From a virus, in the UHGV virus genome UHGV-0236227: DNA of 30,354 bases, one strand, 5' to 3'. Each line of letters opens with the position of its first letter. The stretch's first letter is position 1. The notes below the pieces were generated by a model. It had not been told where the DNA came from, did not search any database, and saw only the letters and a list, made by a program, of their open reading frames with translations. The position numbers and the translations under genes were made by a program. Shown piece after piece: positions 9,075-30,354 of this stretch.

Positions 9075-9151
9075 GTGGCATTAGCTCAGTTGGACAGAGC
9101 AACCGCCTTCTAAGCGGTTGGTCGCAGGTTCGAATCCTGCATGCCACGCCA
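9075..9151 (+). tRNA. tRNA-Arg (anticodon UCU), phage-encoded
   Basis: 77-nt cloverleaf folded by hand: 7-bp acceptor stem GTGGCAT/ATGCCAC, D-arm GCTC-AGTTGGACA-GAGC, anticodon stem ACCGC/GCGGT with loop CTTCTAA, T-arm GCAGG-TTCGAAT-CCTGC, encoded CCA end. Confidence 0.9.
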
Positions 9152-26032: not shown

Positions 26033-26058
26033 CCCGCAAAATATTGCGGGCTTTTTTT
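26033..26058 (+). terminator. Intrinsic terminator (CCCGCAA-aata-TTGCGGG plus 7 T) at the 3' end of the tailspike gene
   Basis: Canonical only in the plus orientation; the T-run overlaps the tailspike stop codon. Confidence 0.5.
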
Positions 26059-29000
26059 AACGTTCTTCCAGAGACTGAATCCGCTCTTTTATCTTATCCA
26101 TTTCTCTGCGCTGCCATGCTGCCTCGATATAGAATAAGAGATCAGGCCTGACCCCCCATCTAGATCCTGCTGGCGTTATTTCAACGCGCTCAATGATGTC
26201 TTCCATTACCATCACTGGATTATCATCCTCATCAACAATGATGCTCCCGTCATTATCAGTCAGCGGCATTTCCCTTTGGCCAGTAATGACGTCATCATAT
26301 ACTGCGGGATAATCGTCATAGCAAAGAAAGGCATAGCGGCATGTTGTGCTTTCTTCTTCCATGAGTCCGTGAGAAATAAGAACATCACGAAGTTGCTGCG
26401 CGATTACACCATGATGTATCCTCGCCCCTTCTTCCCCCTTTATAGCGACAGCGTTCAGCCATTTATAAGCGATATACCTGACGTCACCCCAGGCATCCAG
26501 CAATGCTTCGTCAGGAGAGACCGGCTCTGTCTTTAATGTTCCGTCACTGGTAACCACAGGATTGGAGCCAAGATAAACTGTCGAGAACCTGTTTCCCGGA
26601 CCACCAAGAGCATTTACATTATCAAGATAAGGTTTAACATCTCCGTTCTCAAAAAGATGTTCGAGTGCGTTATATACCGCGCGACGTGGAGTACTGCTTC
26701 CGGAACCATGCAACGTTATCATTGCACCATCTGCTGAAGACGTTGTTTCACCGCCGCTAACGATTAATCTCTGAGCGGTAACATCATCAGACGGTACTTT
26801 CTTCGCAATAATGGCGTAATTACCCTCAAGTTTGACTTCCGCGCGAACTTGTCCTGATGTACCTGCATGGACAGTCAGTGACTGGACGGCAACATCATCT
26901 GTGAAATCAACGGGTACAGGAACCGTCCTCACGCCTGACGTCGACATAAAAGTAGGAAGCGTTCTGTTAGGAGTGGCTCCGTAGACAAAATCCCTTGAAA
27001 CAAATTCTTCCTGTTTGATTTTCACCCTGAAACAATATAAATCAGCCGGGTGACCATCGTGAACATAAGGATATTTTCTGTTGTTATCCCCTATGCTCCA
27101 TGGGTTTAGAAAGTCTTCCCCACCGAAAATGTAGTACAGCCAGTTGTCTTTGATACAAACTGAACCAACACCAACCGCAGAGTTAACTATTCCGCCCTGA
27201 TAAATCTGATCAGTAACATTAACCCACTCTACATTATCCAGACTCCACTCATTGACGTTAACTCTGGTCATAAATGTTCTTGGATAATTTCCTGCATAAC
27301 GGTTATCAGGTTCTCCTCCTTCCCACTCACCAAATGCGCGCTCACTGCCAAAAATAATCAGCTCATCGCCAACTTTGGCAAAAGGAAGGTTTGAGTGATG
27401 AACATTATTTGGGAAGCGAAGAGAATTCCATGATGTACCTAAATCAGAGCTTCTGTGCAATGAACTACCGGGTTGAGTACTTAATGTCCCCCTGGTCGTC
27501 AGATACAGAATGCCATCATAATATTTTACACATGGCTCAGATGCATTCGCCTCATATTCTGCAGGTATGCGTCTGCGAACAAAGCTACCAGGAGAACCGA
27601 AAGCATCAGAGAAATAGAGTATCCCAAGCTCGCGTGGACCAATATCACCATTATGGTAGCCAACAGCAAAACTGTTATCGCTAATCGTCGCAAAACTGTG
27701 AATCTCAGTAACAGGAGTGCTTCCGTCAACAAAAGAAGGAATAGTTCCAAGACTGGTTTTTCTCCATGGTGACGAGTGAAATGATGTACCAAAACTCCAG
27801 TATCTACCCTCGTTATTCTGATCCACATCCTGGGTATTTTGCGTCGTAACTGTAAAAGTATTTTTATCAATAACAGTAGTCACCGTCATATTCCCGGTAA
27901 CACCTGTAACACCAGAGTTTGAGAAGTTGACAAAATCACCAGCAAATAATCCGTGATCAGTAATGCGAATATAAGCGACTTGCTGATTTGCTGCTTTCGT
28001 TATACCACCATAAGCGCGAAGGCTGCGACTCATTGGGCGATCCCACAACTCTGCAACCTGCAGTTTATTTCCGCTCACGGTCCGCGTCTCAATTACAGCA
28101 AAAAGGCGATTTCTGACAACCCCCATACTCATGCAGTGATAGTTAACTGTGGGATAGTTTTCATGTAAATCTGTAAGCCATTCCGGCGTTGTCCAGGTCT
28201 TCCCGTCATCTCCTGAGCGAACCCATGCAACATGGAGGTTATTTACACCATGGCGGTCTCCAGCCATAAAAGGCGCATAGATGACATTGTCATATACAAA
28301 CGTTTTATCCTGCGTCCAGGCGTTGTACCACGGTGTATCTGTAATTTTAAATAACTCTCCCTGGATAAAATCTTCAGAAGCATAAAAAAGAGGCTGGCCC
28401 GGTATTCTCTCAAATAAAAAACGAGCATTTTTAAATCGACTGACATCCGGAAGAGTTGATACTTTAAAAGTAAGCCCTAATCCGTCAATTTTATAACCTG
28501 GAGATGAGGCTTCAAGGCACGCGCTTATTGCAGTGGAATCGTCATTTATACCATCACCAACAGCTCCAAAATCTTTGGGGCTAATAGCATCACGCATTTT
28601 ATCCTGGAACGTTCGGTACACAGCCCCAGAACCATACTGAATAAACCAACCAAAACCACCAACAACCCCGGCGATTGCAGCATCGACATAATTACGCATT
28701 GAGCGATTATTTACAGCGTCCTGCTCAAATGATGGATCTGCAAGGTTAGAAATTTTGTTTTGCTTTGCATCGTAATATTTTGCAAGCAAAGATGGTTTCA
28801 TCAATGCACGTCTGAACCACCCAAAACATTGCTGGATCAGCATCGTCAGGTAGTCAAAGGCATCTTCATGCACTTCTGGGAAAAATTTTCCCTGATTGCG
28901 AAGGTCTGTCTCCTGCACTACATCAAGCACACGATCTATCGTAATTCGCCATCCAGTAGCAAGCGGAGACGGAAGAACCACAGAACCGCCACTATAAGTG

Positions 29001-29176
29001 CCCGCCCCAGTTACCGTATAACCGGTATCCAGAACCAATTCTGTTACGTTTCCGTTCAGGTCAGACACCTGAACAACCAGGTCTGATTTTCTGAAAATTC
29101 GAAAAGTATACGGAAACGATGTCGTAACGCCGTTACCTGTGTATTCGTTGTGGTCAACTTCGGTTGAGACCGTCAT
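26057..29176 (-). CDS. Tailspike / tail fibre with T7 gp17-like N-terminus, Asp-box beta-propeller-like centre and C-terminal intramolecular chaperone domain (endosialidase-like)
   Basis: 1039-aa ORF with GGAG Shine-Dalgarno; N-terminal particle-binding-like region; two Asp-box motifs (SGDDGKTW, SSDLGTSW); DFGAVGDG-type motif; C-terminal chaperone-like tail. Confidence 0.8.
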   Translation of the reverse strand: MTVSTEVDHNEYTGNGVTTSFPYTFRIFRKSDLVVQVSDLNGNVTELVLDTGYTVTGAGTYSGGSVVLPSPLATGWRITIDRVLDVVQETDLRNQGKFFPEVHEDAFDYLTMLIQQCFGWFRRALMKPSLLAKYYDAKQNKISNLADPSFEQDAVNNRSMRNYVDAAIAGVVGGFGWFIQYGSGAVYRTFQDKMRDAISPKDFGAVGDGINDDSTAISACLEASSPGYKIDGLGLTFKVSTLPDVSRFKNARFLFERIPGQPLFYASEDFIQGELFKITDTPWYNAWTQDKTFVYDNVIYAPFMAGDRHGVNNLHVAWVRSGDDGKTWTTPEWLTDLHENYPTVNYHCMSMGVVRNRLFAVIETRTVSGNKLQVAELWDRPMSRSLRAYGGITKAANQQVAYIRITDHGLFAGDFVNFSNSGVTGVTGNMTVTTVIDKNTFTVTTQNTQDVDQNNEGRYWSFGTSFHSSPWRKTSLGTIPSFVDGSTPVTEIHSFATISDNSFAVGYHNGDIGPRELGILYFSDAFGSPGSFVRRRIPAEYEANASEPCVKYYDGILYLTTRGTLSTQPGSSLHRSSDLGTSWNSLRFPNNVHHSNLPFAKVGDELIIFGSERAFGEWEGGEPDNRYAGNYPRTFMTRVNVNEWSLDNVEWVNVTDQIYQGGIVNSAVGVGSVCIKDNWLYYIFGGEDFLNPWSIGDNNRKYPYVHDGHPADLYCFRVKIKQEEFVSRDFVYGATPNRTLPTFMSTSGVRTVPVPVDFTDDVAVQSLTVHAGTSGQVRAEVKLEGNYAIIAKKVPSDDVTAQRLIVSGGETTSSADGAMITLHGSGSSTPRRAVYNALEHLFENGDVKPYLDNVNALGGPGNRFSTVYLGSNPVVTSDGTLKTEPVSPDEALLDAWGDVRYIAYKWLNAVAIKGEEGARIHHGVIAQQLRDVLISHGLMEEESTTCRYAFLCYDDYPAVYDDVITGQREMPLTDNDGSIIVDEDDNPVMVMEDIIERVEITPAGSRWGVRPDLLFYIEAAWQRREMDKIKERIQSLEER

Positions 29177-29280
29177 GTTAAATCTCCAGATAGTCGCAGC
29201 ACCCGTTGCGCCGCATATCTGGTTATTCTATTACCTGAAAAACCACATATGGATAGAAAGACTGTAAATATGAATAGATA

Positions 29281-29295
29281 TTACCTTTCAGGTAA
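29281..29295. promoter_or_regulatory. TTACC-N5-GGTAA palindrome (putative operator) in the divergent tailspike / small-ORF region
   Basis: TTACCTTTCAGGTAA, identical to the site at 8738..8752. Confidence 0.45.
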
Positions 29296-29332
29296 TTTGC
29301 AAAACGTGCTGGATAGCAAACAAATTATTTGC

Positions 29333-29352
29333 TACTGTATAAATATACAGTT
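29333..29352. promoter_or_regulatory. LexA (SOS) box
   Basis: TACTGTATAAATATACAGTT, i.e. CTGT-N8-ACAG with AT-rich spacer; 21 bp upstream of the small-ORF ATG. Confidence 0.6.
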
Positions 29353-29372
29353 ATTGCATGGAGAAGATTAAG

Positions 29373-29630
29373 ATGCAGCAGTATCACTATCCACTGGAAG
29401 ACGGATTTACCGAAAGGATTCACACGCCGGGAGGCGTCAGGTCACTGGTGGAGGGATCGCACTTGATGAAATTACTCCGGGATCTCGATAAGGATGGATT
29501 TAATGTCGATGGCCCACTTGCCGAACTGACTGCACTGATTAACTACGTCACCAGCTCACAGATGTCTATGCAGGATCTGCAAACACATCTCGACTATTGT
29601 GCCGAACAATTACGAAAGCAAACCAGATAA
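29373..29630 (+). CDS. LexA-controlled small protein (Tum-like antirepressor candidate)
   Basis: 85 aa from ATG 29373 with GGAG Shine-Dalgarno at 9 nt (track start 29358 lies inside the promoter region); LexA box immediately upstream. Confidence 0.5.
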   Translation: MQQYHYPLEDGFTERIHTPGGVRSLVEGSHLMKLLRDLDKDGFNVDGPLAELTALINYVTSSQMSMQDLQTHLDYCAEQLRKQTR

Positions 29631-29661
29631 GGTTTGCAATTACCAAGTGGAGTGTTTATTA

Positions 29662-29676
29662 TTACCTTTGCGGTAA
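29662..29676. promoter_or_regulatory. TTACC-N5-GGTAA palindrome (putative operator)
   Basis: TTACCTTTGCGGTAA, 32 bp after the small-ORF stop. Confidence 0.45.
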
Positions 29677-29711
29677 ATTTACATCGAACTCCTCTTGTGC
29701 CATAGTAATCG

Positions 29712-29789
29712 GGCACTGGCAAAATCCAGTGCCGGGATTGGCGTCCCGGGTTACTAAGTGGCGCATACCACGCCAGACGTGGTTTTTTT
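29712..29789 (+). terminator. Structured RNA region: two GC hairpins, then an intrinsic terminator (29768..29789)
   Basis: GGCACTGG-N6-CCAGTGCC (29712..29733), CCGGGA-N6-TCCCGG (29732..29749), CCACG-N5-CGTGG plus 7 T (29768..29789). Confidence 0.5.
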
Positions 29790-29945
29790 ATGCGTTAAGC
29801 ACAGCTATATCCGAATTATGGTGGGCTGGGCAGGGGTCCGAAAGGACGCCGGTACCACTTAGGCCGGTACGCCAACCTTGTCCAGTTCACCACCAGTAAT
29901 TGGCGTTGCGGTGGTGATTAAAATCACTAAGTGGAGATAACCACC

Positions 29946-30354
29946 ATGGCTAATGCTCAAACTGCCATCTTCAAATTTGAATCTGTTAACCCTATCCGTT
30001 CCATCATTATCGATGGCCAACCATGGTTTGTAGCCCAAGACGTTTGTAGTGCGCTGCGTATCCAAAACGTCACCCAAGCACTTGAAAAACTGGATGATGA
30101 TGAAAGGTCTATGTTCAACATAGGGCATGAACATCGTGCAATTTTTGACAGCCGAGTAAAAGAGATCAACATTATCTCCGAGTCAGGCCTCTACACACTG
30201 ATCCTCCGCTGCCGCGACGCAGTGACACCAGGCACTATCCCCTACCGCTTTCGTAAATGGGTTACAGGTGAGGTTCTTCCTCAGATCCGCCGCACCGGAA
30301 GTTACATTAAAAACTCGCTCCCGCAGGAAGAACGCATAAAGATGGTTGCCGACC
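29946..30354 (+). CDS. Bro-N / AntA-family antirepressor (partial, runs off the window end)
   Basis: ATG 29946 with GGAG Shine-Dalgarno; at least 136 codons without a stop; Bro-N-like core (IIIDGQPWFVAQDVCSAL). Absent from the ORF track because no stop is reached. Confidence 0.75.
   Translation, partial: MANAQTAIFKFESVNPIRSIIIDGQPWFVAQDVCSALRIQNVTQALEKLDDDERSMFNIGHEHRAIFDSRVKEINIISESGLYTLILRCRDAVTPGTIPYRFRKWVTGEVLPQIRRTGSYIKNSLPQEERIKMVAD

Follow-up and report, generated by a model that had tools for sequence, protein, structure and literature searches.

A very probable P1/P7-type immI RNA module, with an IsrK-like leader and a C4 RNA, upstream of the antirepressor gene of an epsilon15/phiV10-like phage

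What is the highly structured DNA that separates a small ORF from the antirepressor gene ant in this phage, and how might it act on ant? The initial annotation had placed such a region, of about 250 nt, at 29690-29945 of the window (i.e., the whole stretch of 30,354 nt analyzed here), and had read it as an attenuator, a riboregulatory leader, or a small RNA. We conclude, with high confidence, that 29690-29945 represents a P1/P7-type immI RNA module, in which an IsrK-like leader is combined with a C4 RNA that would keep ant silent. The interval is a member of an already known system, and not a new riboregulator; it is real, functional-looking, and ordinary.

The source phage is an epsilon15/phiV10-like temperate podophage (Uetakevirus) with 98% identity to Escherichia phage HEMP4; phages phiV10, ZX5, and TL-2011b are ~92-94% identical to the window across the c4 locus. 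The coordinates of the relevant features are collected in Table 1. The ant product matches Pfam Bro-N (72.8 bits) and the PHROG family "anti-repressor Ant" (E = 2e-48), and the gene of phage ZX5 that lies at this position favors lytic growth when overexpressed (PMC9782041). The C-terminal half of the 90-aa ORF product is weakly similar to the C-terminus of another "anti-repressor" family, PHROG 1760 (E = 4e-7).

An Rfam scan, one of the checks that the initial annotation had proposed, was conducted on the whole 30-kb window at curated thresholds and returned three matches, namely, a tRNA elsewhere in the window, isrK, and C4. The isrK family (RF01394) matched 29713-29789 with 67.7 bits against a gathering score (GA) of 50 (E = 1.2e-12 for the 30-kb window), and C4 (RF01695) matched 29814-29897 over its full length (model positions 1-87) with 66 bits against a GA of 45 (E = 6.5e-11). 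In a sensitive scan, the c4-a1b1 family (RF03163) was detected at 29700-52, overlapping the first two isrK hairpins, with 44.1 bits, i.e., just below its GA of 46.7. Consistently, the predicted minimum free energy (MFE) of the RNA spanning 29700-29960 (261 nt) was -109.4 kcal/mol, relative to -83.5 ± 5.3 kcal/mol for 200 dinucleotide shuffles (z = -4.9), none of which (0/200) was as low, so the description of the region as highly structured holds. A tRNA or tmRNA reading of the RNA region was rejected, as ARAGORN finds only one such gene in the window, a tRNA-Arg (anticodon TCT; 9075-9151, + strand) carried by the phage.

Table 1. Features of the ant upstream region and its surroundings (positions in the window)
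Feature	Position	Strand	Basis or remark
ATTACC-N5-GGTAA(T) sites, 16-17 bp each	8737, 11867, 11885, 15314, 15376, 17658, 18370, 18432, 23687, 29280, 29661		
Tail-fibre gene	26057-29176	-	Divergently oriented
LexA-box-like palindrome TACTGTATAAATATACAGTT (CTGT-N8-ACAG)	29333-29352		Just 5' of Shine-Dalgarno of 90-aa ORF
90-aa ORF, function unassigned	29358-29630	+	Precedes RNA region; PHROG 450, E = 3e-48
Putative promoter of leader/C4/ant transcript	29678-29706	+	-35 TTTACA 29678-83, -10 CATAGT 29701-06
IsrK-type leader RNA	29713-29789	+	a1/b1 motif and terminator
Leader hairpin 1	29713-32	+	GC-rich
Leader hairpin 2	29733-48	+	GC-rich
a1 UUGGCGU	29738-29744	+	Loop of hairpin 2; complements C4 a'; position as P1 a1
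b1 CUAAGUGG	29754-29761	+	Perfect 8-nt complement of C4 b' loop; position as P1 b1
Terminator-bracketing helix UGGCGCAU/AUGCGUUA	29759-66 with 29790-97	+	MFE fold of window
Intrinsic terminator	Stem-loop 29767-83, seven T 29783-89	+	Terminator scan
C4 antisense RNA gene	29814-29897	+	Rfam RF01695
C4 acceptor-like stem, 17 bp	29819-35/29876-92	+	MFE fold
C4 GAAA hairpin	29836-47	+	MFE fold
C4 hairpin 2, b' loop	29848-68	+	MFE fold
b' CCACUUAG	29855-29862	+	In 9-nt loop of C4 hairpin 2
a' ACGCCAA	29869-29875	+	7-nt single-stranded C4 junction
a2 UUGGCGU	29900-29906	+	5 nt past C4 3' end; complements a'; position as P1 a2
ant 5'UTR target hairpin	GGUGGU 29910-15 with ACCACC 29940-45	+	MFE; encloses b2 and Shine-Dalgarno
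b2 CUAAGUGG	29928-29935	+	8-nt complement of b'; overlapped Shine-Dalgarno is 8 nt 5' of ATG
Antirepressor gene ant, 5' part	29946-30354	+	Bro-N domain; extends past window end

According to a consensus scan alone, the putative promoter has a 17-nt spacer, a TG before the -10 element, and a predicted start at ~29713. Its -10 element ends 6 nt before leader hairpin 1, as does that of the P1 promoter P1c4 (i.e., P51b), and is kept in phiV10, ZX5, and Tyrion. The two GC-rich hairpins recognized in the initial annotation correspond to the a1/b1 (IsrK) leader, and hairpin 1 displays compensatory changes at 6/6 pairs among 51 aligned sequences. In the same 51 sequences, 98% of a1:a' pairs are standard and 5 of the 7 pairs have changed on both sides, relative to 22-51% standard pairs in slid controls. 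Likewise, when b1 was compared with b' across 26 b types, cognate combinations matched with a mean of 6.96 versus 4.42 for non-cognate ones. The intrinsic terminator with seven U residues is also present; from the small ORF to ant, the + strand has no other terminator-like site. RNAalifold did not call this terminator from the 51-sequence alignment, because indels misalign it, and both the terminator and the bracketing helix were then checked sequence by sequence. The bracketing helix can form only in read-through RNA, in which it loops out the U-tract and overlaps the 3' end of b1. It was present in all related leaders that have a U-tract (48/48), with 33 different arm combinations, and has a counterpart in P1 (UGCGGACA/UGUCCGUA); it lies outside the Rfam isrK model.

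Downstream of the leader, the C4 RNA adopts a three-way fold that was predicted independently in 14 homologues. Its tRNA-like acceptor stem is followed by A-CC(A) (29888-95), i.e., the RNA carries a 3' CC(A) tail, and the mature C4 is predicted to span ~29820-29894, if its ends correspond to those in the P1 annotation. Several elements that had initially been listed separately turn out to be parts of this fold. The GNRA-like hairpin is the C4 GAAA hairpin, and the duplicated element, GCCGGTAC at 29848-55 and 29863-70, is simply the two arms of the b' hairpin stem, the two copies pairing as one hairpin because CCGG is self-complementary. The inverted repeat CACCACC (29888-94)/GGTGGTG (29910-16) exists as described; its first half forms the 3' side of the acceptor-like stem of C4, to which GGTGGTG is also complementary, and the 17-bp C4 stem should outcompete pairing of GGUGGUG with the C4 3' strand. 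The b' loop behaves as a hypervariable specificity determinant, with 26 loop sequences among 82 unique loci, 11 of which carry the CCACUUAG version of this phage.

The targets of C4 lie between its 3' end and the ant ATG, which is at 29946 and not 29947. The b2 element overlaps the ant Shine-Dalgarno sequence (GGAG, 29934-37), in the same geometry as P1 b2 over the Shine-Dalgarno sequence of icd. We found no icd-like ORF in the window, where C4 and the ant ATG are separated by just 48 nt, so C4 would target ant directly. The alternative pairing proposed for the bases directly before the ant ATG (GGUGGU:ACCACC) does form in the MFE fold of the 5'UTR, and it recurs with other partners in relatives: an analogous target stem was observed in 17/35 unique relatives, with 3' partners such as ACCACU, AUCACU, AUCGCC, GCCAUC, and others (e.g., AGUGGU/ACCACU in phiV10 and GGUGAU/AUCACU in Tyrion). 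As this sample was chosen by GGTGGTGA, covariation is visible on one side only. In the relatives that lack such a stem, b2 itself is the partner of GGUGGUG. Taken one by one, the 7-8 nt duplexes of the window locus are only modestly better than shuffled targets (p ~0.02-0.08); because these single-locus duplex energies are marginal, the case for C4 rests on position and co-variation.

We therefore draw on related loci for both. Fourteen loci derived from BLAST were fetched, covering Uetakevirus, Stx phages, APSE-2, Salmonella phages, and P1. C4 was found in all of them (14/14) and isrK scored above threshold in 12/14, ~20-25 nt upstream of C4; in P1, isrK reached 35 bits, below its threshold, and c4-a1b1 passed its own. 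Most of these loci have an annotated gene of the antirepressor type downstream. Viral contigs were also scanned with the pattern GTTCACCACC...GGTGGTGA, and the loci added in this way brought the total to 82 unique copies. This contig sample is uninformative on the conservation of GTTCACCACC and GGTGGTGA, for which the BLAST-derived loci alone count; GGTGGTG is present in 11 of these 14.

Covariance analysis across relatives had likewise been proposed as a check. Across the 51 aligned sequences, 97.7% of cells in the leader hairpins and C4 helices are paired, as compared with 36-48% when the 3' partner is slid by 1-3 columns; 20 of their 35 pairs have changed on both sides, and none of 500 shuffles (0/500) reached the observed scores. 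The 82 unique loci comprise 26 b types and 13 a types, which change together in leader, C4, and mRNA. The cognate b2 lies 31-38 nt past C4 in most loci and matches b' over 7-10 nt (median, 8), a median value that only 1.7% of non-cognate pairs reach; non-cognate a and b combinations average 4.4-4.8 nt. A cognate a2 of 7-8 nt is found 4-10 nt past C4 in 13/13 a types, and a1 and b1 behave like a2 and b2 across types. The a and b elements also recombine independently: three loci (L023, L095, and L123) share b' CCACUUAG with the window and have a different a' (AGACCAA), which is matched by their own a1 and a2. These results demonstrate family membership, the structures, and the complementarity together with its co-variation. 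Co-variation of this three-way kind is the hallmark of the c4 system and underlies P1/P7 heteroimmunity.

Two of the fetched loci carry additional elements. In the Stx2a phage Stx2_499 (L014, 1-1163 and 1202-1289), an inserted IS629 has eliminated the leader with a1 and b1 and spared C4, a2/b2, and the gene downstream; it is a natural leader-less variant. In phage Nil2 (L006), an element that interrupts ant contains a match to sRNA-Xcc1 (RF02221; 2325-2408, + strand, 79 bits), an RNA that has been reported beside c4/isrK in some APSE phages too.

From these parts, the following mechanism can be proposed. Transcription from the promoter at ~29678-29706 would start at ~29713. Part of the transcripts would end at the terminator (29767-89), yielding a ~77-nt IsrK-like RNA that carries a1 and b1, and others would continue through the C4 gene into ant. 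C4 would fold into its tRNA-like three-way form and be cut from the transcript, as suggested by experiments on P1/P7 and Gifsy-1, and the mature RNA would be stable, with b' displayed by a hairpin loop and a' by a single-stranded junction. Pairing of a' with a2 and of b' with b2 would then block the ribosome at the ant Shine-Dalgarno sequence, so that no antirepressor is made and lysogeny is kept. The a1 and b1 copies of the leader would compete for C4, and with more transcription into the locus the targets would outnumber C4, allowing Ant to be made. Processed C4 most likely blocks ant translation, with the leader copies as competing targets, although this decoy role is one that we infer ourselves. 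C4 processing, translational repression of ant, and any coupling to Rho-dependent termination would all follow by analogy with the P1/P7 and Gifsy-1 experiments. In P1, according to Schuster-laboratory papers, RNase P is said to make the 5' cut of C4, and Rho-dependent polarity reportedly has a role in the c4 system. The c4 mechanism, which was worked out by Citron & Schuster 1990, has been summarized recently (PMC12197685, citing that work). Accordingly worded, the part of the initial reading that proposed a riboregulatory leader or small RNA controlling the ant ribosome-binding site stands, with C4 and isrK as the RNAs involved, and a classical translation- or metabolite-sensing attenuator is unsupported.

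The role of the terminated leader can be addressed through Gifsy-1, for which genetic data exist (PMC4825925). There, short IsrK provided in trans raises anrP translation 139-fold; the IsrK mutants G28A and G31A are inactive, the mutations C159U and C162U derepress, and the compensatory mutants G28A/C162U and G31A/C159U were constructed (PMC4825925). Counted from the predicted start, the mutated positions correspond to G29740 and G29743 in a1 and to C29873 and C29870 in a'. Since the mutants fall on a1 and a', the "helix b-I" of Gifsy-1 is the a1:a' pairing, and for the same reason we favor reading the terminated leader as a decoy for C4. In addition, the start codon of the Gifsy-1 "orf45" is the conserved AUG in the 5' strand of C4, and STnc1160 is most likely a C4 homologue. 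The decoy role does not explain one observation, namely, that basal translation of anrP rose when a1 was mutated in cis (PMC4825925).

The Gifsy-1 study itself reads the locus as a structural switch with coupling via "orf45" and not as C4 repression (PMC4825925). Applied to this phage, pairing of the leader with the C4 region would hold the read-through RNA in an inactive fold, the short leader RNA would open this fold in trans, and translation of the small "orf45", from the AUG of AAUUAUGGUGGG, would be coupled to that of ant. The genetics are solid (PMC4825925), the leader of this phage matches isrK as strongly as noted above (67.7 bits), and the orf45 AUG, which lies at transcript position 107, falls on 29818-20 in the window, 106 nt from the predicted start. 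However, the "orf45" frame here comprises 14 codons and stops at a UAG in the b' loop (29860-62); because this is 83 nt before the ant ATG, coupling of "orf45" to ant is impossible in the window. Across loci, the frame measures 8, 14, 15, 33, 35, 51, or 64 codons, or is fused in frame with ant, and it is not conserved as a coding sequence because its length varies so; its products match no Pfam family. The truncation to 14 codons in this phage also speaks against coupling as the conserved mechanism, and we regard Gifsy-1-type activation as an improbable account of this locus. It is conceivable, though we hold it only tentatively and rather doubt it, that the IsrK and c4 literatures describe one three-RNA switch, in which the terminated leader, through its target mimics a1 and b1, would be a dedicated sponge for C4, the conserved read-through helix would mask b1 in the long transcript, and read-in from an upstream promoter region under both SOS (LexA-box) and repressor control would tip the sponge:C4:mRNA ratio so that the antirepressor fires.

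Two further readings dispense with C4 altogether. The locus might comprise only passive elements, namely, a terminator of the 90-aa ORF and, behind it, a structured 5'UTR, without any RNA that acts in trans, or it might encode a small "Ash family" or hypothetical protein. The public records lean this way, with just a "terminator" and a similarity feature over the region in phiV10 and an "ash family protein" CDS over C4 in ZX5, but neither a terminator nor a coding frame can explain why elements of 7-10 nt co-vary three ways and keep fixed positions, and the candidate ORFs show neither conservation nor a Pfam match. The coding readings that were tried and rejected comprise a 34-aa ORF (29758-29862), a 100-aa ORF (29597-29899), and the 35-aa ORF of phiV10, none of which belongs to a Pfam family or has a conserved frame. 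We thus consider this group of explanations very improbable. The initial annotation had also pointed to the antisense control of ant in P22. Its functional side is borne out, as sar and C4 would both control ant at the ribosome-binding site; an actual sar-like RNA, transcribed from the opposite strand across that site, is extremely improbable. A weak terminator-like site does occur on the - strand (29945-29930), yet no promoter-like site was found on that strand within 29150-30354, no sar or other - strand Rfam match was obtained at E<=1, and the + strand RNAs account for all conserved structure and co-variation.

The C4 module is best compared with the P1/P7 c4 system, for which we took the anatomy of P1 from the annotation of its GenBank record. 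That annotation gives the order P2c4 (P51a), P1c4 (P51b), a1, b1, a 77-nt c4 RNA, a2, and b2, with a1 TTGACAG, b1 GTTAGTGC, a2 TTGACAG directly after c4, and b2 GTTAGTGA over the icd Shine-Dalgarno sequence. The window matches P1/P7 in the order of its parts (promoter, a1 loop, b1, terminator-like hairpin, C4, a2, b2), in the C4 fold, and in the regulated gene, an antirepressor in both. The a2-b2 spacing is 22 nt in P1 and 21 nt in the window, and b' and a' are 6 nt apart in both. In P1/P7, C4 shares both promoter and orientation with its target, on which it acts through two short loop-target contacts; in the window, where this promoter is predicted, all parts of the module are on the + strand and the promoter-like site is equivalent in position to P51b. 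The systems differ in several respects: (i) the a/b elements of P1 are UUGACAG/GUUAGUG, whereas those of the window are UUGGCGU/CUAAGUGG; (ii) P1 acts via icd, whereas in the window b2 covers the ant Shine-Dalgarno sequence itself, and, with no icd-like ORF, the translational coupling step is not needed; (iii) P1 is a plasmid-prophage myovirus, whereas the host of this module is a 39-kb integrating podophage (Uetakevirus); and (iv) upstream control in P1 is exerted by the C1 operator Op51, whereas the window has the ATTACC-N5-GGTAA palindrome and a LexA-like box.

Other systems share parts of this arrangement. The Gifsy-1 IsrK/orf45 (STnc1160)/anrP locus likewise has a two-hairpin leader, a Rho-independent terminator with partial read-through, and a stable RNA processed from the read-through transcript (PMC4825925), with a Bro-N-type antirepressor downstream, as in the window. 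It differs in its "orf45" frame, which is cut to 14 codons here, and in the published model, in which a short RNA activates through coupling, unlike that of P1; in addition, the window shows no AntQ context. The combination of c4, isrK, and Bro-N was reported earlier for APSE phages of Hamiltonella (bioRxiv 10.1101/2020.03.17.996009), in which both Rfam families adjoin a Bro-N gene, as in the window, and a'/b' match the region upstream of that gene; these phages belong to another lineage and their specificity differs (a' AGGUCAA, b' CCUUGUUAG). P22 sar, also a small RNA, prevents synthesis of the antirepressor by acting at the ribosome-binding site of ant, but the likeness is functional only, as sar is an opposite-strand transcript fully complementary to its target and has no sequence or structural homology to the window region. 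The CI RNA of P4, compared here by its description, is a small RNA processed from the leader of the operon that it controls, with complementary targets (seqA/seqC) both upstream and downstream, as for C4 (PMC4825925); unlike C4, it acts by premature transcription termination of replication genes. In the databases and literature, the two RNA families of the module are kept apart: Rfam lists no clan for isrK, i.e., it is not placed in the C4 clan, and recent reviews treat isrK and C4 RNAs as unrelated (PMC12197685). The c4-a1b1 family appears as a table entry in PMC2864571.

Transcription into the module may be subject to control from upstream. The ATTACC-N5-GGTAA(T) palindrome occurs at 11 sites in the window (21 strand-matches) versus 0.26 expected, and looks like an operator family for a phage repressor. 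Its copy at 29661-76 directly adjoins the -35 element of the leader promoter and overlaps the -10 element of a second promoter-like site at 29634-62; the layout at 29634-29706 thereby resembles that of P1, in which the operator-controlled P51a lies upstream of the constitutive P51b. The LexA-like box, with three matches in the window versus 0.41 expected, retains its CTGT/ACAG arms in phiV10, ZX5, and Tyrion, and its spacer varies. The 90-aa ORF behind this box might be a small SOS-inducible regulator. Since the terminator scan found no + strand terminator between the 90-aa ORF and the c4 leader, SOS-driven read-in is possible, and the terminator-bracketing helix, the LexA-like box, and the palindromes together suggest, as sequence features, that transcription under repressor and SOS control may run into the RNA switch.

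The main value of these findings lies in annotation, as they account for the "intergenic" structure 5' of ant in epsilon15/phiV10-like phages. Public records of this phage group leave the C4 and isrK RNAs unannotated, and the ZX5 paper makes no mention of them (PMC9782041). Instead, CDSs have been annotated over C4 (L002 3147-3260, L004 831-1973, L011 873-1895, L005 1232-1399, and L006 1263-1436), namely, an "ash family protein" in ZX5, hypothetical proteins in Stx phages, and over-long "antirepressor" genes, the latter with starts placed upstream of C4 because the frame of the C4 AUG is open into ant. These CDSs are probably mis-annotations, and such spurious calls can now be flagged. Of modest biological value, both the naturally shortened "orf45" and the co-variation in three places are relevant to the relation between the Gifsy-1 IsrK and P1 c4 models. 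Finally, b' differs between the window (CCACUUAG) and phiV10 (CCUUUUAG), and we predict that the phages of this group would fall into immI specificity classes set by a' and b'.
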